64,000 bases of DNA from an uncultured Bacillota bacterium. GTDB lineage: Bacteria > Sysuimicrobiota > Sysuimicrobiia > Sysuimicrobiales > Segetimicrobiaceae. The stretch lies in contig CAWDRG010000019.1 of assembly GCA_963804645.1 (NCBI GenBank), positions 64,001 to 128,000 on the forward strand. The letters run 5' to 3'. The notes under the pieces were generated by a model, which was not told the origin of the DNA, made no database searches, and was given only the letters and a program-made list of their open reading frames with translations. Every line of letters begins with the position of its first letter. Position 1 is the first letter of the stretch. Shown piece by piece: positions 2,515 through 64,000 of this stretch. Made by a program: the position numbers and the translations under genes.

Positions 2515-2648
2515 CGGCCGGCCCGATCTTCGCTGGAGTGACTCGATGTGAATCGGGCTGCCGGGACCTTCAGGGCTGTGCGGTGGGCTGACCTACGCGT
2601 GGCGTGTGATGTCTCGTCCGTCGCGTCTGCCATCGCCAATCGTGCGCC

Positions 2649-3170
2649 TCAACGAAACACCGGGTCAACCGCTGCGAGCGCCGCGTAATCGACCTGCCAA
2701 TCCTGTCCGTTGGCGCGCATGTTGACGCGCACCGGCGTAGTCCGCGTCCGACCCGCGGTGGTCCGTACCGTCGCGGTGAAAGCGGCTACCGCGGTGTCTC
2801 CGCGGAGGGATACCTGGACGCGGGTCAGCGAAAACGCGGCGATCGCCGAATGCTCCATAGGAGTGGGCCAATCAGCCGGGCGATTGTAGGTGAACCGCTC
2901 CACCCAGGCCTGCGCCTGCGCGGCGCCGGCGTGCGCGAACCCGTCGTACACCTGCGTGACGGCATTCTCGGCGAGTGCGGCCGGCGTAGACGGATAGCCG
3001 ACGAGCAGACCGGCGGTCTGATCCGCCGTCACCGCGTCATGGGCCCAGTGCCAGGGCGGCACGTCCGGGAACGGTGCGGCGACGCTTGCCTGAGGCGCCG
3101 CGCACAGGAGGGCGGCGAACGTGAAGCCGATCATCCGGCTTCCGGTCACGACTGCGCGAAATCTCCTCAC
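2649..3170 (-). CDS. Secreted protein with an N-terminal SLH-like motif
   Basis: Signal peptide, then FPDVPPWHWAHDAV...GLLVGYP, which resembles an S-layer homology repeat. Confidence 0.6.
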   Translation of the reverse strand: MRRFRAVVTGSRMIGFTFAALLCAAPQASVAAPFPDVPPWHWAHDAVTADQTAGLLVGYPSTPAALAENAVTQVYDGFAHAGAAQAQAWVERFTYNRPADWPTPMEHSAIAAFSLTRVQVSLRGDTAVAAFTATVRTTAGRTRTTPVRVNMRANGQDWQVDYAALAAVDPVFR

Positions 3171-3561
3171 GCGCGATTCCCCCTTCGGCAGCCTTCCTCC
3201 ATATTAACGAAACGGCGGCGGTGCCGGTTCGATGTGCCGGAGTCACCTGTGACCGCGGTCGGGGGTGACCTCCGAGGTCCCGAGGGCTGGCGCCGCTGCC
3301 CAGGTTGCCAGCGCGCGGCCGGTTGGCCGGCCGGATATCGCGAGGTCGCGGGCGAACGCCCAGAAGGACACTCCGATCTGGGCGACGAAATACGACCGGG
3401 CAGTGGCAGATCGTTCCGGTGAGGCGCGGACGTTGACCGGGGGGTGGGCCAGGAGCCTGCCCCTTGTTGTGTTATGTTGGGCGATCGTGGGATCGTGCCG
3501 TCGCGGTGGAAGCGACCGTGTTGGATCCAGCGCCCAACCGGATAGCTGAGAGGGGGACCTC

Positions 3562-4440
3562 ATGAAGTGGCGGTGGACGGGGTTGCGGATGTTCTTGGCG
3601 GTCGCCTCGCTGGCGGGTCTGCTGTGTTCGATCGTGACGGCCGCGAGCGCCGACACCAACATGTACGACGGCCAGTGGCGCTTTACGTTCGTGCCCTATC
3701 TCTGGTTTCCGACGATCAACGGCACGCTGAATTTCACCACACCCGGCCCACGCGGTGGTGCCAACCTTCCCGGACAGACTCCTCCCGGGACCAATGTGGG
3801 CGTGACGCTTGGACCCAACAGCTACCTCGCCAACTTGAATTTCGCGTTCCTGGGATACTTCGAGGCGCGCAAGTCGAACTGGTCGGTATTTGCCGACTTG
3901 GTTACTATGAGTTTGTCGAGCCAGACTTCCGAGGTGACTACGTTCGACATCGGCCAGGGTCGGGTCAATCTCGACCCATCGGTGAATACCAGCACGTCTT
4001 CCTCGTTCTCAACCACCCTCGCTACGCTCGCCGGCAGCTACACGGTCCTGCACCAGAATAACACCACCCTGGACGTGTTCGCCGGCGCCCAATTGGCGAG
4101 CGCGAACGCCGGCGTCAGTTGGACGCTGACCGGGCCGCGCGGCATGTTTCCGCAGTCGGGAACCGCCAGCGGGAGCCAGCAGGTGATCGCGGGGATTGGC
4201 GGCATCAAGGGGAACATCCAGCTCGGCGGCGCCGACAGTCGGTGGTTTATTCCTTATCTCTTCGATGTCGGAGGCGGTGGGTTCACGACGTACCAGGCCA
4301 TGGCCGGCATCGCGTACGCCTTCTCGTGGGGCGACGTCGCGCTGACGTACCGGCATCTGTACATCGACATGGGATCGGGGAACTTGGTGCAGAATTTCAC
4401 GATGAGCGGGCCGATGCTCGGGGTGGGATTCCACTGGTGA
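3562..4440 (+). CDS. Putative outer-membrane beta-barrel protein
   Basis: Signal peptide, WRFTFVPYLW, alternating aromatic strands, C-terminal GPMLGVGFHW; RBS-like GAGGGGG upstream. Confidence 0.6.
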   Translation: MKWRWTGLRMFLAVASLAGLLCSIVTAASADTNMYDGQWRFTFVPYLWFPTINGTLNFTTPGPRGGANLPGQTPPGTNVGVTLGPNSYLANLNFAFLGYFEARKSNWSVFADLVTMSLSSQTSEVTTFDIGQGRVNLDPSVNTSTSSSFSTTLATLAGSYTVLHQNNTTLDVFAGAQLASANAGVSWTLTGPRGMFPQSGTASGSQQVIAGIGGIKGNIQLGGADSRWFIPYLFDVGGGGFTTYQAMAGIAYAFSWGDVALTYRHLYIDMGSGNLVQNFTMSGPMLGVGFHW

Positions 4441-4845
4441 GATCGCGGCCGGCGACCGTGTCCCGGCCACGTGGATTCATGCTCCTGAACGGATCGCTCC
4501 GACCCGACGCTGCTCGATAGTGTGCAGTGGGTTGCTCGCGGGTCGACTCGCTCCGAGTCGGGCCTGGTACGCGCTCGAGTGAACTGACTCCGGCGAAGCC
4601 GCACGCGATCCGGCCCATCGTCCACCGGGGGCCGCGCGGGCGTGTCCGAAGCACCCCGTGTGTGTGCGGCGCCGACGCAGGTATCTCGCATCCGGATGGC
4701 AAACCCCGCTGTGGAAGGATCGCGCGGCCCGGCCGCGGCGAGCCTTGCGTCACGCCCACGTGACGTCGCGCCCGGTCGGCGGGTGGGTCGGGGCGCGTAT
4801 GGTGTCGGGCCGCGCCTCGGGTCGATGGGCGAAAAGGGGGATGAG

Positions 4846-5496: not shown

Positions 5497-5599
5497 GCCT
5501 CCGGTGCGGAGACCGACCCGGGTCGTGATCCGCACGCCGGGCGCGGCACGTGATCACGGACAGCGCAGGGGGCGACCGATGCGTGCTGGGCATCATGGG

Positions 5600-6133
5600 A
5601 TGAAGACGGCGGCGTGGCTGGGGGCGGTCGTGACGGCCGTGCTGCTCATGTGGTCAGGGCCGGCGGGGGCGGGCGTAACCGTGCACGTGCCCGCGAGCAC
5701 CCACGTCGGTCTTGAGTTCATGACCCCAGTGTACACGGCCACGGCCGTCAATGGAAACACCGTCAACTTTCGGATCGCCGCGGACGTAATCGTCAACCGC
5801 TACGTCGTGATCAAGCAGAGCACCCCGCTGACGGGCACGGTGACCAGTGCGACGGGCCCCGGCAGGTTCGGCCGGCCGGCACGGGTGATGATCGGGTACC
5901 TCAGCGTGAAGGCCGTCGATCGTCGGCCGCTTGCGCTGAACGGGTTCGAGATTTCCCCGCAGCGCACGGGCCGGGCGGGAGCCGCCGGCGCGATGGCGGC
6001 GGGGGCGCTGCTCACCCACAGCGCGTGGGGCCTGCTCGGCGGTGCCTTGGTCAAGGGGAACGATGTGCAGGTGCCGGTGCATTCCGTGATCGGCGTCACC
6101 ACGCAGGCCCCCGCGACGGTCGTGGTCCCGTAA
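5600..6133 (+). CDS. Secreted hypothetical protein
   Basis: Signal peptide (MKTAAWLG...AGA), beta-rich body, glycine-zipper-like segment. Confidence 0.6.
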   Translation: MKTAAWLGAVVTAVLLMWSGPAGAGVTVHVPASTHVGLEFMTPVYTATAVNGNTVNFRIAADVIVNRYVVIKQSTPLTGTVTSATGPGRFGRPARVMIGYLSVKAVDRRPLALNGFEISPQRTGRAGAAGAMAAGALLTHSAWGLLGGALVKGNDVQVPVHSVIGVTTQAPATVVVP

Positions 6134-6182
6134 CCGCAGACACCCTCCGCACCGCTCCAGTCAGGTCTCGACCGAGACGAAA

Positions 6183-6216
6183 GCACCGTGGCGCCCCAAC
6201 CGGGGCGCCACGGTGT
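6183..6216. terminator. Strong hairpin between convergent genes
   Basis: GCACCGTGGCGCCCC-AACC-GGGGCGCCACGGTGT. Confidence 0.7.
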
Positions 6217-6318
6217 TGACTCAGGCCTGCCTCGACGAACGGACCTAGCGCGTCTTCGGCCGATGCGCGTGCGTCATGCTGAGAAGACCGACCGGCCAGC
6301 CAGCAGTGGTGCCGTGCG

Positions 6319-6939
6319 CTAGTGAATCGTGTACTTGGTCAGCGTGACCGACTTGTTCCGCACGTCCGCCGGCCACGCGGCCTCCGGCCCGAACGTGATC
6401 TTCACGATCGTCTTCGCCGCCGGCGAGTACCAGGCGAAGCCCGTGCCGACCTGCTGCTGCGCCGGGGGATTGCCACTCGGCATCGTCAGGACCGAGCACA
6501 GCAGCTCCACCGCGGAGAACGTCCCGGCCGGCACCGTCACCGATTGCACCGGGCCGACGCGCCACACGAAGTCAGCCTTCGTCCCCTTGTCGATCCACCG
6601 TTTGTTGGCGGTGAGGGGCCACTTCAGGAACAGGAAGTTGCCGATCTGCTCGCGCTTGAACATCGCGCCCCACTCCATGTTGGGCCGCACGCCGGCGCCC
6701 ATCCCAGCGATCGTGTAGGACCCGTCGGTTGCGGCGCTCTCGACGGTCATAGCCACCGCGCCGCCCATGGGGCCCTTCCACGTCCACGTGTCACCGTGGT
6801 ACCATGTCGGCGCGGTCAGCGGAAGCTTCGCCATCGCCATGGGCATCGACTGTGCGTTGAGCTGCAGCGGGAGCATGCCCGCTACCAAAACTAATCCGAG
6901 GATCGCTGCGAACGTGCCAAGCTTGAACCTACGAACCAC
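6319..6939 (-). CDS. Secreted hypothetical protein
   Basis: GTG start after GAAGGGGAAGG; signal peptide; VTVPAGTF beta-hairpin motif and WYSP..K..VK. Confidence 0.7.
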   Translation of the reverse strand: MVRRFKLGTFAAILGLVLVAGMLPLQLNAQSMPMAMAKLPLTAPTWYHGDTWTWKGPMGGAVAMTVESAATDGSYTIAGMGAGVRPNMEWGAMFKREQIGNFLFLKWPLTANKRWIDKGTKADFVWRVGPVQSVTVPAGTFSAVELLCSVLTMPSGNPPAQQQVGTGFAWYSPAAKTIVKITFGPEAAWPADVRNKSVTLTKYTIH

Positions 6940-6996
6940 GATATCACCTTCCCCTTCGATTGGTTTGGTGCAAGTTGTGGAACCGCACGTGCCCAC

Positions 6997-7026
6997 AAAA
7001 ATGCCCCGGTCGCAAAAGGCCGGGGC
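6997..7026 (-). terminator. Intrinsic terminator inside the leader of the gene at 6319-6939
   Basis: Minus strand: GCCCCGGCC-TTTTGC-GACCGGGGC-ATTTTT. Confidence 0.65.
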
Positions 7027-7054
7027 TAGGCCAGTCGACTCGTCTCTCACTAAA

Positions 7055-7084
7055 ACCTTAGCATTCCCCAATGAGGGTTGTCAA
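7055..7084 (-). promoter_or_regulatory. sigma70-type promoter (IS target site 1)
   Basis: Minus strand: TTGACA-18 bp-TAAGGT with a TG extended -10. Confidence 0.75.
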
Positions 7085-7089
7085 CCGAT

Positions 7090-8511
7090 CGAATCAACTC
7101 ACCTAAAATCTTACTATGAGCCGCATCGTCAAATCACGAAGGATCTTACCGGGCGCGCCGTCCCAGTCTATCGCCCCGGAGGCCCCGGTGACCCCTGCCG
7201 CTCGTCGCGAATACGTCCGCGCCGTTCGCCCACGCTACACGCTTGCGCCGCGCAAACACCGGCGCGCGATCCTGGACGAATTCTGTGCCACGACCGGGTA
7301 CCATCGCAAATACGCGATCACGGTGCTAAACGGCCCGTTGCCCACACCGGCCCCCCCACGCCGTCGGCAGCCCGTCTATGCCGAGCAGACGGTCACCGTG
7401 CTCGCGGCGATTTGGGAGGCCGCGGGATACCCCTGGTCCGCACGGCTCCAGGCGCTGCTGCCGCTCTGGTTGCCCTGGGCCCGCCGTCATTTCACCATCC
7501 CGCGGGCGGTGCTGCGTGCGCTCCCCAAGATGAGTCCCAGTACGATCGACCGGCGCCTGCGCAGTCGGAAGCGCCAGATCCGCCGTCGGCTCTACGGCCG
7601 CACCAAGCCTGGCACGTTGCTCAAGAGCCATATCCCCGTCCGCACCGAGCACTGGGACGTCACGGCCCCCGGCTTCGTGGAAGTCGACTTGGTCTCCCAT
7701 TCCGGCAACTCGGCCGTGGGGGACTTCCTCCAATCGCTCAACCTGACGGACATCCAGACGGGGTGGGTGGAGTCTCGGGCCCTCCTGAGCAAGACGCAGC
7801 GCGGCGTGCAGCGGGCGCTCGCGGAGCTGCGGGCGGCGCTGCCCTTTGCGCTCCGCGGCCTCGATTCCGACAATGGCTCGGAGTTCATCAACACGGTGTT
7901 GTGGGAGTATTGCCGAGGGTCGAAGATCGAGTTCACCCGCAGCCGGCCCTACAAGAAAAACGACAACGCCCACGTGGAGCAGAAAAACTGGACCCACGTG
8001 CGCAAGCTGTTGGGCTGGGACCGCTACGACTCCGCCGAGGCGCTCACGGCGATCAACGACCTCTACCGCCACGAACTGCGCCTGATGATGAACCTCTTTC
8101 AGCCGTCGGTCAAGCTGGTCGGCAAGACGCGGGTCGGCGCCAAGGTCCACCGGACCTACGATCGCGCGCAAACGCCCGTGGATCGGCTCCTCGCCTCCAA
8201 ACAGGGCGATCCGCGACAACTCCGGACCTTAGCGCGCCTGCGGGCCAAGATCGATCCCTTCGCCTTGGGGGCCGCCATCGATCGCAAGCTCGAGCGCATC
8301 TATCAGCTGGCCAACCGGCGTCACAGTCCCCGCGCCAGCACCCCAGAGGCCCGCCCGGTCGACGCGCGGTTCCAGCCGCGCGCGCACCACTGGAACAACG
8401 ACTGGTTGTTTGCCAAGCGACAGGATCGTCGCGCCACCGCCGGTTCCGCGGTAAGAACTTAAATGACCTGACGATACCCTCTCCGGTAAGGTTCTTTAAT
8501 GACTTGACACG
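7090..8511 (+). mobile_element. 1422-bp DDE insertion sequence, copy 1 (ISNCY-like / IS481-related)
   Basis: Ends CGAATCAACTCA... and ...TGACTTGACACG; CCGAT duplicated at 7085-7089 and 8512-8516; near-identical inverted copy at 54084-55505. Confidence 0.92.
7188..8462 (+). CDS. DDE transposase (integrase core)
   Basis: GFVEVDLVSH, LDSDNGSEF, NDNAHVEQKN; GTG at 7188 after GGAGG (the ORF track starts at 7116). Confidence 0.9.
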   Translation: MTPAARREYVRAVRPRYTLAPRKHRRAILDEFCATTGYHRKYAITVLNGPLPTPAPPRRRQPVYAEQTVTVLAAIWEAAGYPWSARLQALLPLWLPWARRHFTIPRAVLRALPKMSPSTIDRRLRSRKRQIRRRLYGRTKPGTLLKSHIPVRTEHWDVTAPGFVEVDLVSHSGNSAVGDFLQSLNLTDIQTGWVESRALLSKTQRGVQRALAELRAALPFALRGLDSDNGSEFINTVLWEYCRGSKIEFTRSRPYKKNDNAHVEQKNWTHVRKLLGWDRYDSAEALTAINDLYRHELRLMMNLFQPSVKLVGKTRVGAKVHRTYDRAQTPVDRLLASKQGDPRQLRTLARLRAKIDPFALGAAIDRKLERIYQLANRRHSPRASTPEARPVDARFQPRAHHWNNDWLFAKRQDRRATAGSAVRT

Positions 8512-8689
8512 CCGATCCGACTCGGCGGCCGGCGCGCGCAAATGTAACGACGCGCCACCGCGGAGCGTGTTCGTCGCGAGCACGCGGTGACCGGGGCGCG
8601 GCAAGGTGCGGCCCCGCACCGCGGGGAAGTTCGTCCGCCGACGTCCGGACGCGATCGCGCTGGTGGCGGCTGAGGGAGGGTTCCGGGGA

Positions 8690-53979: not shown

Positions 53980-54083
53980 CGAGGGACCTCCTGTGCCCGC
54001 GCTGGCCCGGCCGCGGTCGCACACGCCGGTGAGGTGCTTCGCGATGCGCCGTCGTGAGTTCCTCGGTGGGCGCCCGTGTTTCA

Positions 54084-55505
54084 CGTGTCAAGTCATTAAA
54101 GAACCTTACCGGAGAGGGTATCGTCAGGTCATTTAAGTTCTTACCGCGGAACCGGCGGTGGCGCGACGATCCTGTCGCTTGGCAAACAACCAGTCGTTGT
54201 TCCAGTGGTGCGCGCGCGGCTGGAACCGCGCGTCGACCGGGCTGGCCTCTGGGGTGCTGGCGCGGGGACTGTGACGCCGGTTGGCCAGCTGATAGATGCG
54301 CTCGAGCTTGCGATCGATGGCGGCCCCCAAGGCGAAGGGATCGATCTTGGCCCGCAGGCGCGCTAAGGTCCGGAGTTGTCGCGGATCGCCCTGTTTGGAG
54401 GCGAGGAGCCGATCCACGGGCGTTTGCGCGCGATCGTAGGTCCGGTGGACCTTGGCGCCGACCCGCGTCTTGCCGACCAGCTTGACCGACGGCTGAAAGA
54501 GGTTCATCATCAGGCGCAGTTCGTGGCGGTAGAGGTCGTTGATCGCCGTGAGCGCCTCGGCGGAGTCGTAGCGGTCCCAGCCCAACAGCTTGCGCACGTG
54601 GGTCCAGTTTTTCTGCTCCACGTGGGCGTTGTCGTTTTTCTTGTAGGGCCGGCTGCGGGTGAACTCGATCTTCGACCCTCGGCAATACTCCCACAACACC
54701 GTGTTGATGAACTCCGAGCCATTGTCGGAATCGAGGCCGCGGAGCGCAAAGGGCAGCGCCGCCCGCAGCTCCGCGAGCGCCCGCTGCACGCCGCGCTGCG
54801 TCTTGCTCAGGAGGGCCCGAGACTCCACCCACCCCGTCTGGATGTCCGTCAGGTTGAGCGATTGGAGGAAGTCCCCCACGGCCGAGTTGCCGGAATGGGA
54901 GACCAAGTCGACTTCCACGAAGCCGGGGGCCGTGACGTCCCAGTGCTCGGTGCGGACGGGGATATGGCTCTTGAGCAACGTGCCAGGCTTGGTGCGGCCG
55001 TAGAGCCGACGGCGGATCTGGCGCTTCCGACTGCGCAGGCGCCGGTCGATCGTACTGGGACTCATCTTGGGGAGCGCACGCAGCACCGCCCGCGGGATGG
55101 TGAAATGACGGCGGGCCCAGGGCAACCAGAGCGGCAGCAGCGCCTGGAGCCGTGCGGACCAGGGGTATCCCGCGGCCTCCCAAATCGCCGCGAGCACGGT
55201 GACCGTCTGCTCGGCATAGACGGGCTGCCGACGGCGTGGGGGGGCCGGTGTGGGCAACGGGCCGTTTAGCACCGTGATCGCGTATTTGCGATGGTACCCG
55301 GTCGTGGCACAGAATTCGTCCAGGATCGCGCGCCGGTGTTTGCGCGGCGCAAGCGTGTAGCGTGGGCGAACGGCGCGGACGTATTCGCGACGAGCGGCAG
55401 GGGTCACCGGGGCCTCCGGGGCGATAGACTGGGACGGCGCGCCCGGTAAGATCCTTCGTGATTTGACGATGCGGCTCATAGTAAGATTTTAGGTGAGTTG
55501 ATTCG
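54084..55505 (-). mobile_element. 1422-bp DDE insertion sequence, copy 2
   Basis: Inverted near-identical copy of 7090-8511; TTTCA duplicated at 54079-54083 and 55506-55510. Confidence 0.92.
54133..55407 (-). CDS. DDE transposase (copy 2)
   Basis: Same protein as 7188-8462 except PEARP vs PEASP. Confidence 0.9.
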   Translation of the reverse strand: MTPAARREYVRAVRPRYTLAPRKHRRAILDEFCATTGYHRKYAITVLNGPLPTPAPPRRRQPVYAEQTVTVLAAIWEAAGYPWSARLQALLPLWLPWARRHFTIPRAVLRALPKMSPSTIDRRLRSRKRQIRRRLYGRTKPGTLLKSHIPVRTEHWDVTAPGFVEVDLVSHSGNSAVGDFLQSLNLTDIQTGWVESRALLSKTQRGVQRALAELRAALPFALRGLDSDNGSEFINTVLWEYCRGSKIEFTRSRPYKKNDNAHVEQKNWTHVRKLLGWDRYDSAEALTAINDLYRHELRLMMNLFQPSVKLVGKTRVGAKVHRTYDRAQTPVDRLLASKQGDPRQLRTLARLRAKIDPFALGAAIDRKLERIYQLANRRHSPRASTPEASPVDARFQPRAHHWNNDWLFAKRQDRRATAGSAVRT

Positions 55506-55510
55506 TTTCA

Positions 55511-55540
55511 TTGACAGGGGGACGCGTCGGATTGTAAGGT
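55511..55540 (+). promoter_or_regulatory. sigma70-type promoter of tRNA-His (IS target site 2)
   Basis: TTGACA-18 bp-TAAGGT, 13 nt upstream of the tRNA. Confidence 0.8.
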
Positions 55541-55553
55541 GGGGTATGCACGC

Positions 55554-55629
55554 GGTGGCCGTAGCTCAAGGGCAGAGCACCAGACTGTGGCTCTGGGGGT
55601 TGCGGGTTCAAGTCCCGTCGGCCACCCCA
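55554..55629 (+). tRNA. tRNA-His(GUG)
   Basis: G-1, acceptor GTGGCCG/CGGCCAC, C discriminator, encoded CCA, anticodon arm CCAGA-CTGTGGC-TCTGG, TTCAAGT T-loop. Confidence 0.97.
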
Positions 55630-59034: not shown

Positions 59035-59730
59035 GTGGCCTCGTGGGGGCGTGCCACCGCGGCGTTGTTGTGCCTCGCGGGCTTTCTCCTGGTCTTGCAG
59101 GTGCGGGCATACCGGGAGCTGAGCGCGGGTATTGAACTGCCGTCTCGGCGCCTGGAAGATCTCCTCGTGCTGATTCGGCGCCAGCAGGACTCGGACCGGG
59201 CGCTGCGCGACGAGGTCGCGTCGCTCGAGGCGAAGCAGCAGGAGATCCGAGCGACCGAGGCCGCGGGGCGCAGCCTCGCCGACGCGATGCGCCATGAGAT
59301 GGACGGGTACCGGCTGGCCCTGGGCATGACTGCGGTGGCCGGCCCGGCGATCTCCGTGACGCTCGCGGCAGACCCGAAACACGTCTCCGTGCCCCAAGCG
59401 CAGGACGTGGCGGCCATGGTCAACGAGCTCTGGGGAGCCGGGGCCGAGGCAGTATCGGTCAACGGGCTCAGGATGCTGGCGACCGATGGCGTCGTGTCGT
59501 CGGGGCGGGGCGTCCGGATCGCCGGGCGTCCCACGGGCGAGCCGTATGTGATCGTGGCGATCGGCGACCCCGCGGTCCTCGACGAGGCCTTGACGGTGCC
59601 CGGGGGTGCCGTCGACGGATTGCGCGGGGTCGGGCTCACGGTGACGCTGCGGCGGATTCCCCAGGCGGTGCTCCCGGCGTTCTCACGGACGGTCGAGTTT
59701 CACGTCGCCCGGCCGCTCCCCGGCCCCTGA
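59035..59730 (+). CDS. DUF881 domain protein
   Basis: TM plus coiled coil, LG...V.GP, VNELWGAGAEAVSVNG.R, PYVIVAIGDP. Confidence 0.88.
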   Translation: MASWGRATAALLCLAGFLLVLQVRAYRELSAGIELPSRRLEDLLVLIRRQQDSDRALRDEVASLEAKQQEIRATEAAGRSLADAMRHEMDGYRLALGMTAVAGPAISVTLAADPKHVSVPQAQDVAAMVNELWGAGAEAVSVNGLRMLATDGVVSSGRGVRIAGRPTGEPYVIVAIGDPAVLDEALTVPGGAVDGLRGVGLTVTLRRIPQAVLPAFSRTVEFHVARPLPGP

Positions 59731-59784
59731 TGGATCGCAGCGGGGCCGCAGCGGGTCGTACCGGCGGCGCTCTACCGGAGGGGG

Positions 59785-59941
59785 AAAATGATCGACGGCC
59801 GCCGCCCGGTGCGGGTTCCCGCCCTGGGCTGTCGCAGCCGTCGATGTCCCGTCCTGGAGAAGCTGCCCGCCTTGCGCCGGTGAGGCGTCAACGCTTGTCT
59901 GACTCGCCGGCGTCGCAGACCGCTCTTATCGAGACGGGTAC
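59785..59941 (-). ncRNA. Candidate structured small RNA
   Basis: Promoter at 59944-59973, two long adjacent hairpins (59846-59941 and 59791-59845), then TTTT. Confidence 0.5.
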
Positions 59942-59943
59942 AT

Positions 59944-59973
59944 AAACTACCACGTTCGTGAGTCGGTTGTCAA
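59944..59973 (-). promoter_or_regulatory. sigma70-type promoter (IS target site 3)
   Basis: Minus strand TTGACA-18 bp-TAGTTT with a TG extended -10. Confidence 0.7.
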
Positions 59974-59989
59974 GAGTCGAATCACGCCA

Positions 59990-61413
59990 TGTATTAGCTC
60001 CATGACTTTGTCACCCCTTAACGGCTCAGTGATTCTGTCACCCTGGGAGGATGACCAGGGAGACGATCACCTTGACCAAGCAGGAGCAACAGCGTGCACA
60101 TGTACTGTCTAAGGTGCAGGAGGGCACTCTTACGGCCAGTGCGGCGGCGAGCCTCATGAGCCTGTCGGTGCGGCACGTCCGGCGGTTGCTGGCGGAGGTG
60201 CGGGCGCAGGGACCCGCCGCCTTGGCCCACGGGAATCGCGGGTGCGTGTCCCACCGGCGCTTGTCCGACGCCGTACGGACCCAGGTCGTGACCTTGGCCC
60301 GCACGACCTATGCCGGCATCAATGATCATCAGCTCACCGAGCTCCTGCGGGAACGGGAAGCCCTCACCGTCTCGCGGCCCTCGGTCCAGCGCCTGCTGCG
60401 CGAAGCTGGCATCGGGAGTCCGCGGACCCGCCGCCCGCCTCGCCATCGCCGCCGCCGCGAGCGGATGCCGCAAGCCGGCTTGCTCATTCAGATGGACGGC
60501 AGTCACCACCCGTGGCTGGAGGACCGCGGGCCCCGCCTCGTCCTGCTCGCCGCGATCGATGATGCGACGGGCGAATTGCTCGGCGGCATCTTTCGCGAGG
60601 AAGAGGACTCGCACGGCTACCTGCTACTCCTCCGCCAGCTGATCACGCGCTATGGCGTGCCTGCGGCCATCTACACTGATCGTCACGGCATTTTCCATCG
60701 CGATCCCCGCACGCCCCTGACGGTCGCGGAGGAGCTCGAGGGACGACTGGAATCCACCCAGGTCGGCCGCGCGATGCAAGAATTGGGCCTCAAGTGGATC
60801 CCGGCCAATTCGCCGCAGGCGAAAGGTCGAGTAGAACGGCTCTTCGGCACGCTGCAAGATCGCTTGGTCGTCGAGCTGCGACTCGCGGGCGCGCAAACGG
60901 GCGCGCAGGCCCAGCGGGTCTTCAACCGCTTTCGACGGCGGTTCAACGCCCGCTTTGCCCACGCGCCCGCAGACGCCACACCGGCGTGGCGCCCCGCGCC
61001 GCCAGATCTGGAGCAGGTCTGTTGTTTCAAGCACGAGCGCAAGGTCCAGCACGACAATACCGTCCAACTGCAGGGCCGGTGGCTGCAACTGCGCCCCGGC
61101 CCCAACGGCCGCAGCTACGCCGGCCTCCGCGTGACCGTTCGAGCGCACTTGAACGGCACGCTCGCCGTCGTCTATCGGGGACAGCCACTGGCCGTCCGGA
61201 CGTTGTCGCACGCTCCGCGCCGGGCCACGGCGAGCCACAGCGCCACCACCGCCCAGCCCGCGGCGGCGGCCCCCGCGCCGCGCACTCCAACCGTCCCGTC
61301 GTCCACCCACCCCTGGCGACGGATGATCCAAGACGACATCTACAGGCAGCGCTTGCTCCAGAGGTGACATTTTCACAAATCCGTTAGGGTGACAGGATTA
61401 CTGAGCTATGACA
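59990..61413 (+). mobile_element. IS1202-like / ISNCY element A with a long target duplication
   Basis: IRs TGTATTAGCTCCATGACTTTGTCACCC and (reverse complement) TGTCATAGCTCAGTAATCCTGTCACCC; flanks GAGT(C)CGAATCACGCCA at 59974-59989 and 61414-61430. Confidence 0.88.
60051..61367 (+). CDS. DDE transposase, IS1202/IS481-like
   Basis: N-terminal HTH, IQMDGSHH.W, YTDRH, SPQAKGRVER, C-terminal HPWRR. Confidence 0.9.
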   Translation: MTRETITLTKQEQQRAHVLSKVQEGTLTASAAASLMSLSVRHVRRLLAEVRAQGPAALAHGNRGCVSHRRLSDAVRTQVVTLARTTYAGINDHQLTELLREREALTVSRPSVQRLLREAGIGSPRTRRPPRHRRRRERMPQAGLLIQMDGSHHPWLEDRGPRLVLLAAIDDATGELLGGIFREEEDSHGYLLLLRQLITRYGVPAAIYTDRHGIFHRDPRTPLTVAEELEGRLESTQVGRAMQELGLKWIPANSPQAKGRVERLFGTLQDRLVVELRLAGAQTGAQAQRVFNRFRRRFNARFAHAPADATPAWRPAPPDLEQVCCFKHERKVQHDNTVQLQGRWLQLRPGPNGRSYAGLRVTVRAHLNGTLAVVYRGQPLAVRTLSHAPRRATASHSATTAQPAAAAPAPRTPTVPSSTHPWRRMIQDDIYRQRLLQR

Positions 61414-61418
61414 GAGTC

Positions 61419-62848
61419 CGAATCACGCCATCTAAAATCTTACCGGGGCCCCGATCGTCGCGCCATCGAGAATCTTACCAGCGTTACACTCATCTTACGC
61501 CCCGGGAGGCCGCAGTGACTCCTCGATCCAGACGGGAATATGCCGCGATCATCCGCGAGCGCTATGCCAAGGCGACCCGCGAGGCGAAGCAGCGGATCCT
61601 CGACGAATTCTGCGCCACGACCAAGTACCATCGAAAATATGCGATTGCGGTGCTGGGGCATGCCCCTACACCGGCGGCCGCCCCACGGCGACGGCGACGC
61701 CCCACGTACGGCGCCCAGACGATCTCCGTACTCGCCACGATTTGGGAGGCGGCCAGCTATCCATGGTCGGCGCGGCTCAAAGCGCTCTTGCCGCTCTGGC
61801 TGCCCTGGGCGACACGCCACCTGCCCATCGCGCCCGGCGTGGAGCGGCAGTTGCGTCGGCTCAGCGCCCGGACCATGGACCGCCGCCTCGCCACGAAGAA
61901 ACGGCGCCTGCAGCGGCGCTTCTACGGCCGCACTAAGCCGGGGACCCTGCTCAAGCACCACATCGCCATCAAGACCGAGCATTGGGAGGTGAGTACGCCA
62001 GGCTTCACCGAGATCGACTTGGTCTCCCACTCGGGCAATGCCGCCGACGGCGACTTCCTCCAGTCGCTCAATCTCACGGATATCCACACCGGCTGGGTCG
62101 AAACGCGGGCCGTCATGGGCAAGGGACAAACGGCCGTCCGCGCGGCCTTGGAGGAGTTGCGGCAGGCCCTGCCGTTTCCCCTGCGCGGCATCGACTCTGA
62201 CAATGGCTCCGAGTTTATCAACAATCATCTCGTGCGCTACTGTGCCGATCGGAAGATTCAATTCACCCGCGGCCGCCCCTACAAAAAGGACGACAATGCC
62301 CACATTGAACAAAAGAACTACACGCATGTCCGCAAGCTGATGGGCTGGGAGCGCTACGATTCGCCGCACGCCCGCGCCCGCATGAATGACCTGTATCAGC
62401 ACGAAGTGCGGCTCATGATGAATCTCTATCAACCGTCCGTGAAGCTGCTCCGCAAGGAGCGCATCGGGTCCCGGCTCACGCGGCGCTATGATGCCCCCAA
62501 GACCCCGCTCGATCGCCTGGCGGCTACGCCGGGCGTCGACGCGGCCACCATCCGCGCGCTCCACCAGCTCCGTGCCCAACTCGACCCGTTCGCGTTGGCC
62601 GCCGCGATCGATCAGAAACTCAGCGTCATTCACCAGGCTGCCAATCATCGCCTCAGTCCCCGCGATGCCACCATGCCGCCCCCGGCCGTCACACCGTCCG
62701 TTCGCGCCACCCATGCTCCTCACCGCTGGGACCACAACTGGTTCTTCCCGAAGGCGGTCGCCCAACGTCGCGGCGGCCGCACTCTGGTAAGAACTTAAAT
62801 GGCGCGATGATACCTTCCCGGGTAAGATTCCTTAATGGCTTGACGGGG
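61419..62848 (+). mobile_element. DDE insertion sequence B, a diverged relative of 7090-8511
   Basis: Left end CGAATCACGCCATCTAAAATCTTACC; right end GGTAAGATTCCTTAATGGCTTGAC; flanked by GAGTC on both sides. Confidence 0.88.
61515..62798 (+). CDS. DDE transposase B
   Basis: GFTEIDLVSH, IDSDNGSEF, DNAHIEQKN; GTG after GGAGG. Confidence 0.9.
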   Translation: MTPRSRREYAAIIRERYAKATREAKQRILDEFCATTKYHRKYAIAVLGHAPTPAAAPRRRRRPTYGAQTISVLATIWEAASYPWSARLKALLPLWLPWATRHLPIAPGVERQLRRLSARTMDRRLATKKRRLQRRFYGRTKPGTLLKHHIAIKTEHWEVSTPGFTEIDLVSHSGNAADGDFLQSLNLTDIHTGWVETRAVMGKGQTAVRAALEELRQALPFPLRGIDSDNGSEFINNHLVRYCADRKIQFTRGRPYKKDDNAHIEQKNYTHVRKLMGWERYDSPHARARMNDLYQHEVRLMMNLYQPSVKLLRKERIGSRLTRRYDAPKTPLDRLAATPGVDAATIRALHQLRAQLDPFALAAAIDQKLSVIHQAANHRLSPRDATMPPPAVTPSVRATHAPHRWDHNWFFPKAVAQRRGGRTLVRT

Positions 62849-62865
62849 GAGTCCGAATCAACTCA

Positions 62866-62980
62866 TGTAATAGGTCAATGAATTTGTCACCCGGTAACGG
62901 GCCAGTGATTCTGTCACCCTGGAATAATGAACAGGGAGACGATCACCGTGTTACGGTGACAGGATTACTGAGCTATGACA
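62866..62980 (+). mobile_element. 115-bp non-autonomous derivative C of the element A type
   Basis: A-like left end plus the first codons (MNRETIT) joined to a right end identical to A's terminal GGTGACAGGATTACTGAGCTATGACA. Confidence 0.8.
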
Positions 62981-63055
62981 GAGTGCGAAGTGCCTGGTAG
63001 TGTCCTAATTTGGTTGCTCCTATTTCTTAGTCGGGGATTAGCGCGGGACGGACCG

Positions 63056-63247
63056 TTACCCGCGTGGGCGGCGCCGCCGGTATGCGCTGAACCCGGCGAG
63101 GCCGATGGCCAGCAGCAGGAGTAACCCGGTGACGACGGTTTGGGACTGGTGGGTGGTCGGAGTGGCCAGCGCAGAAACCGCCGCAATCCCTAGCACCACC
63201 AATGCCAAGACGATGCCAAGCAGCCACCAGCGATTCATCGCGGTCAT
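63056..63247 (-). CDS. Small two-TM membrane protein
   Basis: 63 aa, two hydrophobic helices, basic tail, GGAGG RBS. Confidence 0.55.
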   Translation of the reverse strand: MTAMNRWWLLGIVLALVVLGIAAVSALATPTTHQSQTVVTGLLLLLAIGLAGFSAYRRRRPRG

Positions 63248-63316
63248 ACTAACGCCTCCTACTCTATGCTGCCGGTTCGATGTCCGTGATTCCAACGACG
63301 GCATCGTACAATTTGC

Positions 63317-63630
63317 TCATGTTCCACGTGTACGTTTCCAGCCCTGCCGCGACCGCGGGACGACTTTGAGCGTCGAATGCACCCGCACGACGTTGTAGTG
63401 GGCGAAGTGTAATGTCAGGGCGCTCTTGAGATTGCAGAGCCTCTTCGAGAAGGCGTTCGTTCGCCGCGTGAACCGACGTACCTGCATCCGAATCGTGAGG
63501 TTCTGGCGCTCGACGTAGGATGTCGAGATGTCTTGAAAATCGGGGTTCCCAACGATCGGCGCCGGAATCGCCTGGGTGATCCGTGGTCGACAGTACCGCG
63601 CTTCGTCGGCGACCTCCGCGCCGCAGAGTT
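63317..63630 (-). pseudogene. IS1-family transposase fragment
   Basis: ISTSYVERQNLTIRM..RRFTR.TNAFSK, HFAHYN..RVH.TL; no N-terminus. Confidence 0.8.
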
Positions 63631-63631
63631 T

Positions 63632-64000
63632 CACTGGTTTCACGCGATGCGCGGGCTGCACCACCGCGAGCCGGGCGCGGCAGGCGCCGCGCTCTTGATC
63701 CGCGGGCTCACGGTGAGCGTGATCGCCGACCGGGTGCACGTGCACCCCGCGGTGCTGCGGCTGATCGCGCGCACGGCGGGGACCGGCCGGATCGCGCTTG
63801 TCACGGACGCAGTGTCCGCGGCGGGCATGGAGCGCGGCTTGTACACGCTGGGCGCGGAGACGATCGATGTGCGGGACGGCGCATCGCGGCTGCCGGACGA
63901 AACGCTCGCGGGCAGCGTGCTGCGCCTGGACCGGGCGGTGCGCAACTTCGCGGCGGACGCGGAGGTCAGCATCCGCGAGGTGGTGCAGGCGGCGACGCTC
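63632..64000 (+). pseudogene. nagA: N-acetylglucosamine-6-phosphate deacetylase, 5'-truncated and running off the window
   Basis: FHAMRGLHHREPG, IADRVHVHP, LVTDA, LAGSVL; the upstream half is replaced by the IS1 remnant. Confidence 0.8.

Follow-up and report, generated by a model that had tools for sequence, protein, structure and literature searches.

Stacked insertion sequences at a −35 box suggest promoter-edge targeting by two unrelated transposon families

A stack of insertion sequences (IS) abuts the hexamer TGTCAA in the window analyzed here, by which we mean the whole stretch of 64,000 nucleotides (nt) whose positions serve as coordinates throughout. The stack, read from 59968 to 62997, very probably reflects repeated insertions by two IS families at the −35 edge of sigma-70-type promoters. 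Indeed, judging from the sequences compared, some seventy insertions by two unrelated families would in all likelihood share the identical target spot of promoters. This promoter-edge habit seems not to have been described before. A search of the open-access literature by titles and abstracts found no paper on insertion at a −35 edge, and among titles and abstracts on ISTde1 there was none on targeting.

Anatomy and likely order of the stack

The initial annotation laid the locus out as TGTCAA, element A, element B between two copies of GAGTC, and element C, and rereading the letters of the window reproduced that string base for base (Table 1). On the plus strand, TGTCAA is the reverse complement of TTGACA, the −35 hexamer of a minus-strand promoter. 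A, the only full copy of its kind in the genome, is flanked by GAGTCGAATCACGCCA and GAGTCCGAATCACGCCA, which are equal apart from one C missing in the left copy. The right copy is B's left GAGTC (61414-61418) followed by the first 12 nt of B (61419-61430), and the left copy is GAGTC with an orphan copy of that tip, less the one C; a 17-nt version of the left string stands left of A in a metagenome contig, L137. A second full copy, on contig C6, set the left boundary of B; it is flanked by a TACAT duplication and matches at 99.65% over 1447 bp in an alignment beginning at 61419. GAGTC recurs on the right of B (62849-62853), and behind it stands an orphan 12 nt, CGAATCAACTCA (62854-62865), identical to the first 12 nt of all five copies of X, a 1422-bp element that had been called copy-1-type. 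GAGTC and this tip together form the left copy of the 17-nt duplication of C, which is 85% like the first 85 nt of A and keeps 31 nt of right end. The place expected for the right copy holds GAGTGCGAAGTGCCTGG, which agrees with the expected duplication at 10 of 17 positions. The initial annotation gave 8 of the first 9 nt here and took this to imply later deletion or decay; the match is 8 of the first 10. X, apart from its orphan tip, and the right copy of the C duplication are gone from the stack. Two exact 12-nt IS termini, both behind an identical 5-mer, adjoin elements of families that elsewhere produce 17-bp and 5-bp duplications, and so this anatomy is not due to chance.

Table 1. Features of the stack, its promoter and the two solo X copies in the window
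Feature	Position	Strand	Remarks
Solo X: TGTCAA	7079-7084	+	
Solo X: left CCGAT	7085-7089	+	
Solo X: element	7090-8511	+	
Solo X: right CCGAT	8512-8516	+	
Solo X with TTTCA duplications	54084-55505	-	whole span with tRNA-His 54079..55629; 5 nt upstream of TTGACA
TTGACA of tRNA-His promoter	55511-55516		
tRNA-His	55555-55629	+	
Candidate structured non-coding RNA driven by the targeted promoter	59783..59939	-	ends approximate
Predicted −10 hexamer TAGTTT	59944..59949	-	extended −10 type (TGg precedes); 18 nt from −35
Predicted −35 hexamer TTGACA, anchor of all insertions	59968..59973	-	9 orthologous loci
Left copy of A duplication, GAGTCGAATCACGCCA	59974..59989	+	16 nt
A, putative IS1202-family element, 16-17-bp-duplication (ISTde1) type	59990..61413	+	1424 bp; TGT...ACA ends
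A transposase	60051-61367		
Right copy of A duplication, GAGTCCGAATCACGCCA	61414..61430	+	17 nt
B, rve-transposase family IS without a name	61419..62848	+	1430 bp; 5-bp duplication
B transposase	61515-62798		
Left copy of C duplication (right GAGTC of B and orphan X tip)	62849..62865	+	17 nt
C, miniature (internally deleted) A-type element	62866..62980	+	115 bp
Place expected for right copy of C duplication, GAGTGCGAAGTGCCTGG	62981..62997	+	

We propose that two unrelated IS families inserted here repeatedly and independently, each time aiming at the base immediately upstream of the −35 hexamer. The polarity is uniform: both families insert one way, with the left end beside the promoter and the transposase gene directed away from the promoter. 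Duplications take in the 5 bp beside the hexamer in the B/X family and 16 to 17 bp in the A family. Because the hexamer itself is not part of the duplication, every insertion would rebuild the target, and each newcomer would come to lie between the promoter and the previous element; the stack gives no sign of target immunity. The order would then be X (duplicating GAGTC), the A-type element that became C (GAGTC and 12 nt of X), B (GAGTC), and A (GAGTC and 12 nt of B), with X and the right copy of the C duplication subsequently lost, probably through a deletion between the short GAGTxCGAA repeats on either side of X. We infer this order as the most parsimonious one, and the manner of X's loss likewise. 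It is the order first proposed; the alternation of types read into it is mere coincidence. That A followed B holds up, given the 16- to 17-bp duplications of A-type elements and the composition of A's own, and the tip left of C does belong to a lost copy-1-type element, as had been claimed, with the 12 nt matching the left end of X and contig L137 retaining the intact junction.

Contig L137 supplies an intermediate state of the kind the initial annotation predicted: an A-type right end is followed by GAGTCCGAATCAACTCA, which continues for over 1 kb as intact X. The same contig (6920 bp, of which 54%, none of it left of the B copy, was covered) also carries another B on A's promoter-facing side, and the two flanks of that A do not match. 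In contig L138, an A-right/17-mer/B junction occurs at another locus, and A's flanks are again mismatched. Such flanks need an explanation by recombination, by excision followed by re-insertion, or by a chimera of short-read assembly over the 1.4-kb repeat, which means that the insertion record can be scrambled. The stack as a chronological record is thus readable only at its nested duplications and is lossy, with X gone here and an extra B and mismatched flanks in L137.

Three of the four inner junctions of the stack are present in other assemblies. Contigs of sequencing run X1 bridge B-right/GAGTC/X12/C-left (62818-62895) with 0 differences and C-right/flank (62912-63257) with 2 differences, the runs used possibly including the sample behind the genome assembly. 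In run X1, loose ends place additional A and B copies behind TGTCAA+16 and TGTCAA+5, respectively, and a C-type end behind TGTCAA+17. It is extremely improbable, then, that the stack is a mis-join of repeats in a metagenome-assembled genome. The missing C in 59974-59989 and an extra G in 62845-62849 do resemble assembly errors, and no independent contig with the TGTCAA/A-left junction was seen in the metagenome and run assemblies, but the nested duplications are exactly as the two families produce them, and mis-joins make no orphan 12-nt termini.

A second stack, with B next to X and TACAT three times, lies at promoter P1 of the only rRNA operon. A scan of 38 B-type sites of other genomes gave no clear stack and one doubtful one (L050), so that stacking is rare. 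Both full B copies in the genome adjoin X, more than expected with all promoters as equal targets.

The targeted promoter and its RNA

The initial reading of TGTCAA as a −35 box gained support from nine relatives. The orthologous promoter has TGTCAA in eight of the nine and CGTCAA in one, and the −10 motif TGnTAnnnT is kept in the nine orthologous loci, with a spacer that varies. Since hexamer and −10 are kept in 9/9 relatives despite the variable spacer, upstream of a conserved RNA, TGTCAA reads as a real −35 box, part of a predicted strong promoter of that RNA. The candidate RNA is about 165 nt long and 74 to 82% conserved in the nine relatives, which belong to the same bacterial family. Its RNAalifold consensus (−71 kcal/mol) has two domains and a terminal hairpin with a U tract, and a search of 59500-60050 against Rfam at E≤0.01 returned no family for it.

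An A-type element, in each case a solo copy, occupies the same edge of the orthologous promoter in two of the nine relatives, and the site is empty in the other seven. The left side of the stack locus is syntenic in the relatives. When their empty sites were sought from the right side, the flank at 62981-64000 matched only a nagA fragment, which lies on other contigs in the relatives; leuC, the neighbor in the closest relatives, is here on contig C10 with no IS adjoining. Ancestry of the right flank of C could not be demonstrated from the relatives, which have other neighbors there. It shares the 6-nt string GCGAAG with the empty sites of two relatives, a match that is only suggestive.

A promoter rule shared by the two families

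That duplications start at the first base after TGTCAA, claimed initially for this stack, proved to be a general rule for both families. For the B/X/Y family, 45 sites were compared, 38 of them out of 80 loci in other genomes (those with an exact 5-bp duplication) and 7 in this genome. In the promoter direction, the 6 nt past the duplication were T in 41, T in 33, G in 40, A in 23, C in 23, and A in 18 of the 45, with exact TTGACA at just 10 sites. TAnnnT followed at a spacer of 16 to 19 nt in 33/45, against 0 to 4 of 45 in registers shifted by at least 3 and 2/42 and 0/42 in right flanks. In the genome background, such a −10 accompanies 17.5% of TTGACA (n=566), 1.4% of TTGnnn (n=77092), and 0.7% of all positions. 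The 12 sites without a strict TAnnnT include several with nAnnnT and two, L050 and L011, that resemble no promoter. Surviving insertions are filtered by selection, and the −10 signal alone is no proof of polymerase guidance.

A-type sites, including solo copies as had been suggested for checking, follow the same rule. At all 10 phylum sites with both ends, a set that excludes one from an unpublished genome, the duplication starts at TTGnnn (TTGACA in six, TTGACT in two, and TTGACC and TTGCCT once each), with TAnnnT at 17 to 18 nt. All nine metagenome sites, with elements of 64 to 100% identity, conform with a −10 at 17 to 18 nt, and so does A', an element of this genome whose 17-bp duplication, ahead of the tRNA-Arg promoter, is perfect. 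TGn stands ahead of the −10 in 8 of 11 A-type sites, and the positions directly before the −10 are G-rich in the B-type site logo. Four relatives, the most distant sampled in the subgroup (34 to 37% identity, AT-rich hosts, 15- to 16-bp duplications), have no TTG hexamer, and the A-type rule therefore holds for a clade and is not demonstrated for the whole subgroup.

The solo sites also decide a question raised in the initial annotation, which held that A-type copies aiming only at B-type ends would speak against promoter targeting. A-type elements might be drawn to B-type left ends and B to the X left end, with the promoter incidental; both full B copies do lie beside X, A beside B here and in L138, and C once beside X. 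But A', the 10 phylum sites, and the nine metagenome sites have no B-type end in or near the duplication, no other IS end adjoins 43 of the 45 B-type sites, and the A-type elements at the orthologous promoter in two relatives stand alone. IS-end targeting is very unlikely, and we reject it as the main rule.

The two solo X copies in the window illustrate what is targeted. One faces a minus-strand promoter, TTGACA-18-TAAGGT, and Rfam applied to 5500-7200 found nothing downstream of it; for the other, TTGACA-18-TAAGGT is the promoter of tRNA-His. Targets with a gene downstream in this genome are tRNA-His, tRNA-Arg, P1 of the sole 16S rRNA gene, and the conserved RNA. On sequence grounds, the targets appear to be sigma-70-type promoters, with a TTGACA-like −35 and a TAnnnT −10 spaced 16 to 19 nt apart and a gene downstream. 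ARAGORN found just this genome's two tRNAs in 600 nt downstream of 57 sites, and a 16S match sought at other loci turned up none outside this genome's rRNA site, so the rule is not specific to stable-RNA genes. A test for long open reading frames starting 40 to 260 nt into the promoter-side flank (39/54, opposite strand 31/54) gave no discrimination, as expected at 69% G+C.

It is a serious if tentative possibility, not far from evenly balanced, that the transpososome recognizes the promoter by docking, in the manner of class II activators, on the RNA polymerase bound there, with sigma region 4 as the simplest contact. Docking is favored because two unrelated transposases use one register, the −10 and extended −10 are read by polymerase alone, and stacked sites are of the strongest promoter kind. 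Slightly more tentative is the fuller proposal that the two families dock on the sigma-70 holoenzyme and integrate at −37/−36, with insertion frequency tracking promoter occupancy.

Each transposase may instead read TTG(ACA) directly and cut beside the hexamer, polymerase playing no part; the −10 signal would then come from the purging of insertions elsewhere, mostly in genes, intergenic TTGACA being mostly promoters. We regard this as possible but unlikely. Nineteen of the 45 B-type hexamers match TTGACA at no more than three of six positions, and 13 of these 19 still have a −10 at the right distance. Base frequencies fall along the hexamer as in the sigma-70 promoters of Escherichia coli compilations, and the G-rich positions and TGn before the −10 are those of extended −10 promoters. 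Neutral intergenic TTG without a −10 should far outnumber promoters, given the 1.4% background, and the same readout and register would need to have arisen in two dissimilar transposases. Direct readout draws its strength from a site logo in which conservation is higher at the hexamer than at the −10 and from −35-like hexamers at or near the tips of right ends (...GGCTTGAC(A/G)nG in B/X and ...(C/T)GACA in A), which suggest that the transposases already bind such DNA. The target specificity of the ISAjo2 group, moreover, is placed in the transposase in one study (PMC10132070).

The same end sequences suggest that a promoter could resemble an element's abutted right and left ends, TTGAC(A/G)-16/17-TAAAAT for B and X with the ends touching and ...GACA-16/17 nt-TGTAAT for A with a spacer of duplication length, and that the transposase confuses the two. 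Metagenome locus L140 does have an A-type right end, 16 nt, and then a left end, and junction promoters are usual in copy-out-paste-in elements according to another study (10.1101/2022.12.17.520857). Such mimicry is nonetheless improbable: the logo has no end sequence beyond the two hexamers (no GCCAT before and no CTTACC after the −10), a B/X junction with the expected 5-bp spacer would give a spacing of 21 to 22, and insertion occurs outside the stretch taken for a mimic. Docking on polymerase remains the reading that we favor.

Element families and known systems

B, X, and Y have a single rve-type DDE transposase, a length of about 1.4 kb, and a short duplication. In 45 elements, left ends read CGAATCA... 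or CGTATCG..., i.e., CG(A/T)ATC..., and right ends ...GGCTTGAC(A/G)(C/G)G, and each end has two subterminal repeats spaced about 36 bp. The nearest NCBIfam model is that of the IS481 family. Membership was rejected: the B transposase reached neither the cut-off of that model, NF033577 (44.6 bits against 224), nor that of Pfam rve (29.2 against 32.6), and the termini, CG(A/T)ATC... and ...TTGACnnG, are not the TGT...ACA of IS481. A structure prediction for B (pLDDT 74, pTM 0.68) matched HIV and PFV integrases, ShCAST TnsB, and IstA at Foldseek E values of 1e-5 to 1e-4, with low whole-chain TM scores of 0.21 to 0.30, and phmmer matched the transposase to integrase cores at E 5e-4. By this model, B would belong to the DDE/retroviral-integrase superfamily, with an RNase H-like core and then a small beta domain. 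The fold search of the whole model returned the general integrase/TnsB/IstA core alone, with nothing sigma-region-4-like noted for the helical N-terminal 136 residues. The A and B proteins have no BLASTP similarity, and B/X proteins do not match NF033594. In soil and peat metagenomes, 7996 of 8000 scored candidates were B/X relatives at E≤1e-20, named just "hypothetical" or generic transposase, and the family appears to be without a name so far.

The A transposase matches NF033594, transpos_ISNCY_2 (E 1.6e-114, 383 bits, cut-off 250), which we take to be the IS1202 group of ISNCY. TGT...ACA termini were found in A, C, A', and all 24 relatives with both ends, such termini being a precondition of the search that found those relatives. 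These are 11 of 29 phylum loci and 13 of 79 metagenome loci, all with duplications of 16 or 17 bp except three of 15 bp. Distant A-type relatives end in ...TTGACA. Reported marks of the ISTde1 subgroup are a 5- to 10-residue indel between the second D and E, an extra DD pair, and a Q after the E (10.1101/2022.12.17.520857). With the family model match, TGT...ACA termini, 16- to 17-bp duplications, and a length of about 1.4 kb, A, A', and C would fit this 16- to 17-bp subgroup of the IS1202 family. ISCARN53, ISCARN62, ISCARN63, and others belong to it as well.

Known targets of site-specific IS are attTn7, dif sites, REP elements, integron attC, and the ends of other transposons. A one-base, one-orientation promoter rule common to two families would be a new bacterial class of "safe haven," a reusable site at which the core promoter is kept and the upstream activator/UP region displaced. 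For annotation, an element end with its duplication would locate a −35 box with single-base precision in uncultured phyla that lack promoter maps. Stacks at rRNA, tRNA, and small-RNA promoters would be recombination hot spots in genome evolution, with locus variants in metagenomes, and, as to mechanism, host-protein guidance of a single-protein transposase could be put to the test here. Docking on sigma, if true, would explain why stacks stand at such promoters and would provide a natural tool that places DNA at a defined base upstream of an active promoter left intact, possibly useful in genome engineering.

Within the IS1202 family, the ISAjo2/ISAba32 group inserts 5 bp from the XerC arm of dif/pdif, and the authors raised the idea that its transposase docks on a DNA-bound host protein, XerC (PMC10132070; 10.1101/2022.12.17.520857), the same logic as docking on sigma. 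As described in these sources, the group resembles the stack elements in its fixed orientation with the left end toward the site, its single transposase gene, the one duplication copy between element and site, and a site outside the duplication; it differs from A in using an Xer site and 5 bp instead of a −35 edge and 16 to 17 bp. The portions of these sources consulted state a target, within the family, just for the 5-bp group. B and X share the 5-bp duplication but have no IS1202 sequence similarity and CG... instead of TGT termini. Their assignment to the ISAjo2/ISAba32 group was rejected, the neighboring hexamer being a −35 with a −10 at 17 to 18 nt and NF033594 giving no match.

IS26, IS30, IS21, and the IS3 family insert into IS ends or beside a copy already present and also give side-by-side elements. 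In those cases the target is the element in residence or its end, whereas adjacency here would be, judging from the solo copies, a by-product of a shared external target. Ty3, Ty1, Dictyostelium TRE5-A, and Tf1 insert at a fixed distance upstream of polymerase III genes or at promoters. The likeness lies in insertion just upstream of the transcription machinery, often at tRNA or stable-RNA genes, with the core promoter spared and repeated hits. Those are eukaryotic retroelements tethered to known factors, whereas the elements described here are bacterial DNA transposons with a putative tether, which, if docking on sigma is true, would place them, among bacteria, in the role that Ty3 and Ty1 play at polymerase III genes.

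Stack anatomy and order of insertions

The stack at the -35 box is a by-product of a target rule common to two insertion sequence families. The initial annotation had read it as three elements, A, B, and C, lying with short duplications beside a single TGTCAA, the reverse complement of the -35 hexamer of a minus-strand promoter, and the window sequence is identical to the string as given there. Element A has TGT...ACA termini, and its transposase, 438 residues long, scores 383 bits against NCBIfam NF033594 (ISNCY_2; cut-off, 250). C, a 115-bp miniature, combines 85 nt resembling the left end of A (85% identity) with 31 nt from the right end. The 427-residue product of element B shows a weak rve domain. 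The genome (5.3 Mb, 22 contigs, 68.6% G+C) holds a single full copy of A and, 10 kb upstream of the window, a 70% relative, A', which has kept a perfect 17-bp duplication and is interrupted by an insert of about 4.7 kb. B recurs as a full copy on contig C6 (99.65%) and truncated on C11. A 1,422-bp relative with 70% identity to B, here called X, is the copy-1-type element of the initial annotation; it is present in five copies, two within the window, and one of the five is broken up by an insert of about 0.5 kb. A third type, Y, lies on contig C5, and a match to a domain of group II introns (RF00029, 41.6 bits; cut-off, 40) adjoins its right end. Perfect 5-bp duplications flank each of the six intact X, B, and Y copies that lie outside the stack.

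Coordinates of the stack and of associated features
Feature	Location	Remark
TGTCAA	59968-59973	
16-nt string GAGTCGAATCACGCCA	between TGTCAA and element A	
Element A	59990-61413	
17-nt string	61414-61430	GAGTCGAATCACGCCA string plus one extra C
Element B	61419-62848	starts inside 17-nt string
Right copy of GAGTC	62849-62853	
12 nt CGAATCAACTCA	62854-62865	
Element C	62866-62980	
GAGTGCGAAGTGCCTGG	directly after element C	
B/X-type ends with subterminal repeats	61419-61490, 62780-62848	also L055, L057, L018
Conserved RNA candidate	59783-59939	minus strand
Transposase-like remnant and nagA part	63317-64000	right of stack
Second stack (C6)	L002 (G000:C6:43500-50000)	IS pair 1765-4620; 16S rRNA from 4988
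Interruption of A'	G000:C19:48976-53707	
Interruption of an X copy	G000:C13:24924-25429	
Group II intron domain match	L001 2453-2549 (G000:C5)	
Duplicated or hybrid left tips	L032 1392-1412, L038 1391-1411	B-type loci
A-type end-to-end junction	L140 960-1000	1380-bp metagenome contig

X begins with CGAATCAACTCA and B with CGAATCACGCCA, which identifies one 12-mer of the stack as an orphan tip of X and the other as the tip of B itself. Under the target rule, each newcomer is inserted between the hexamer and the earlier occupants. B is flanked by GAGTC on both sides and the X tip adjoins the right copy; B was therefore inserted beside X, as on C6. The left flank of C consists of GAGTC and 12 nt of X, which places this A-type insertion at a time when X was still adjacent to the promoter, before B. 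The duplication of A consists of GAGTC and 12 nt of B, which makes A the last arrival. We infer the order X, C, B, A as the shortest history. This is the order that the initial annotation had proposed; its interpretation is supported, and its target rule is generalized by the further sites described below. The left copy of A's duplication is one C short, and the right end of B in the window has one G more than the C6 copy and metagenome contig L137; both differences probably reflect errors of assembly or indels acquired later.

X itself and the right copy of C's duplication are missing from the window. The lost state does occur in nature: in L137, GAGTCCGAATCAACTCA comes after an A-type right end and leads into over 1 kb of X. 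X had GAGTC-CGAA on its left and, provided that the flank now seen is old upstream DNA, GAGTG-CGAA on its right, in which case a deletion between these short repeats would yield the present sequence; the closest relatives have GCGAAG or GCGAAT directly past the hexamer, a match of 6 nt only. To its right, the stack borders on rearranged debris: a transposase-like remnant in minus orientation and a C-terminal nagA fragment, the latter showing 87 to 93% identity to a stretch on C5 that is likely the intact gene.

The target rule in two families

TGTCAA stands directly before the left duplication in four of the seven X and B copies in the genome. Read on the opposite strand, all seven independent B/X/Y sites, as well as that of A', present a hexamer, 17 to 18 nt, and TAnnnT, and this holds also at the poorer hexamers TTGACG, TTGCGG, TTCCCC, and TTGTCT. 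Eighty loci with relatives of the B/X/Y transposases were fetched from public genomes, by record title metagenome-assembled genomes of Acidobacteriota, Rokubacteria, Vicinamibacterales, Acidimicrobiia, Armatimonadota, and others. Both ends and an exact 5-bp duplication were found in 40, of which 38 were retained; L032 and L038 were left out for poor inverted repeats. The left tips of these two are duplicated or hybrid, CGTATCGAG then CGTATCGAGCC and CGTATCGAGG then CCTATCGCGC, respectively, which may be orphan tips from earlier events. In the resulting 45 sites, including the 7 from the genome under study, the six bases past the duplication were T (41), T (33), G (40), A (23), C (23), and A (18), and a T-A-(A)-n-n-T signal came next, at positions 29 to 35. 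TAnnnT was present at a spacer of 16 to 19 in 33 of the 45 sites, compared with 0 to 4 of 45 when the register was shifted by at least 3 and with 2/42 and 0/42 in right flanks. In the genome background, such a -10 accompanies 17.5% of 566 TTGACA, 1.4% of TTGnnn, and 0.7% of all positions.

A search of 94 genomes of the phylum for A-type elements gave 29 loci, 11 of them with both ends and a 16- to 17-bp duplication. In every one of the 11, the duplication is immediately preceded by a -35-like hexamer, with TAnnnT following at 17 to 18 nt, and in 8 the -10 has TGn ahead of it; leaving out L097, from an unpublished genome, the count is 10/10. A metagenome scan added 79 A-type loci, 13 with both ends. 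The rule was obeyed by all nine of these at 64 to 100% identity and broken by all four at 34 to 37% (two of the four being identical). The divergent loci, L202 to L205, lie on AT-rich metagenome contigs and have 15- to 16-bp duplications and a perfect TTGACA at the extreme right tip. No TTG hexamer was found beside their duplications, and the target of these elements, if any, would be different from the promoter edge. Among the loose contig ends of one peat run, A was found behind TGTCAA plus 16 nt, B behind TGTCAA plus 5, and a C-type end behind TGTCAA plus 17.

Promoters hit and frequency of stacking

Judged from their sequence, the targets of both families are promoters. The promoter TTGACA-18-TAAGGT, 14 nt before tRNA-His, has a solo X copy 5 nt upstream of it, and A' is situated before tRNA-Arg. 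A second stack, on C6, reads TGTCAA TACAT [B] TACAT [X] TACAT. It occupies the upstream one of two tandem promoters, TTGACA-17-TACAGT, 334 nt before the sole 16S rRNA gene; the gene-proximal promoter, TTGACA-17-TATAAA, is unoccupied. At the window promoter, the hexamer and extended -10 are kept in 9/9 relatives of the family, with a variable spacer. The downstream RNA candidate is conserved over about 165 nt in the nine relatives and folds into a common two-domain structure with a terminal hairpin and U tract; an Rfam search gave no match. Shorter matches on other contigs of several relatives suggest that it may have paralogues. The orthologous promoter edge is empty in seven of the nine, and the other two, which represent two other genera, show an A-type left end 16 or 17 nt past the hexamer (left junction only).

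Both full B copies in the genome adjoin X, more than expected with all promoters equal, and newcomers may be subject to some residual attraction by IS ends. B-type ends were found at none of the A-type sites in the phylum and metagenome sets, and the 38 B-type sites in other genomes included no clear case of a stack. The stacked promoters are rRNA P1 and the small-RNA promoter, the latter hit independently in two other genera, which suggests that stacking stems from a small number of highly attractive promoters and not from the pull of IS ends.

Metagenome contigs hold further variants. L137 runs from a B right end through GAGTC and 12 nt of B, A, and GAGTC with the X tip to an intact X, its left part being the arrangement expected if another B had followed A into the promoter edge. 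In L138, A has the right flank seen in the window and a left flank from another promoter, one that bears a decayed B-type copy on C11 of the genome. The two contigs have an identical A transposase, and in both the two flanks of A are mismatched, through recombination between copies or excision followed by re-insertion, or else through a chimeric assembly spanning a 1.4-kb repeat. L139 has a clean solo A at a third promoter, with a 100% identical transposase. L140 is circularly permuted (A-type right end, 16 nt, left end); it is either an excised circle whose spacer has the length of a duplication or a tandem of two copies at one promoter.

Promoter recognition and relation to known elements

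For both families, position, polarity, duplication lengths, and target regeneration are shown. Strand transfer of the right end occurs at the hexamer boundary in both, and that of the left end 5 or 16 to 17 nt further upstream. In the most interesting reading, the promoter may be recognized via RNA polymerase, with docking of the transpososome on promoter-bound holoenzyme perhaps guiding insertion. The transposases of A and B have no detectable similarity yet share a common register, which favors docking, as do the -10, present in 13 of 19 sites with a poor hexamer, the extended -10 signals, and the gathering of stacks at stable-RNA promoters. Alternatively, the transposase may read the target DNA directly: the hexamer is conserved better than any other part of the site logo, -35-like hexamers occur at the right tips of both families, and the insertions that survive have been filtered by selection.

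Model match, termini, and duplication length agree with a placement of element A in the ISTde1 subgroup of the IS1202 family. In the available text of Siguier et al. (10.1101/2022.12.17.520857) and Harmer et al. (PMC10132070), a target is ascribed only to the 5-bp IS1202 group. No description of insertion at a -35 edge was found in titles and abstracts, a coverage that excludes subscription journals, and the rule common to the two families is apparently undescribed. B, X, and Y have only generic names in the public protein collection. B scored below the cut-off of the IS481 model, and the tests of IS481 membership applied here to B, X, and Y failed; its predicted structure assigns B to the integrase/TnsB/IstA superfamily, without finer detail. 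Each end of B, X, and their relatives contains a pair of similar subterminal repeats (GCCAT...AATCTTACC type) with a spacing of about 36 bp, and the right and left ends, if abutted, would form a junction promoter, TTGAC(A/G)-16/17-TAAAAT. Paired subterminal repeats are likewise found in Tn7, Mu, and ISAjo2-like elements. For the related dif-targeting group, docking on DNA-bound XerC has been suggested by Harmer et al. (PMC10132070), the same logic as the holoenzyme docking proposed here for A and B.
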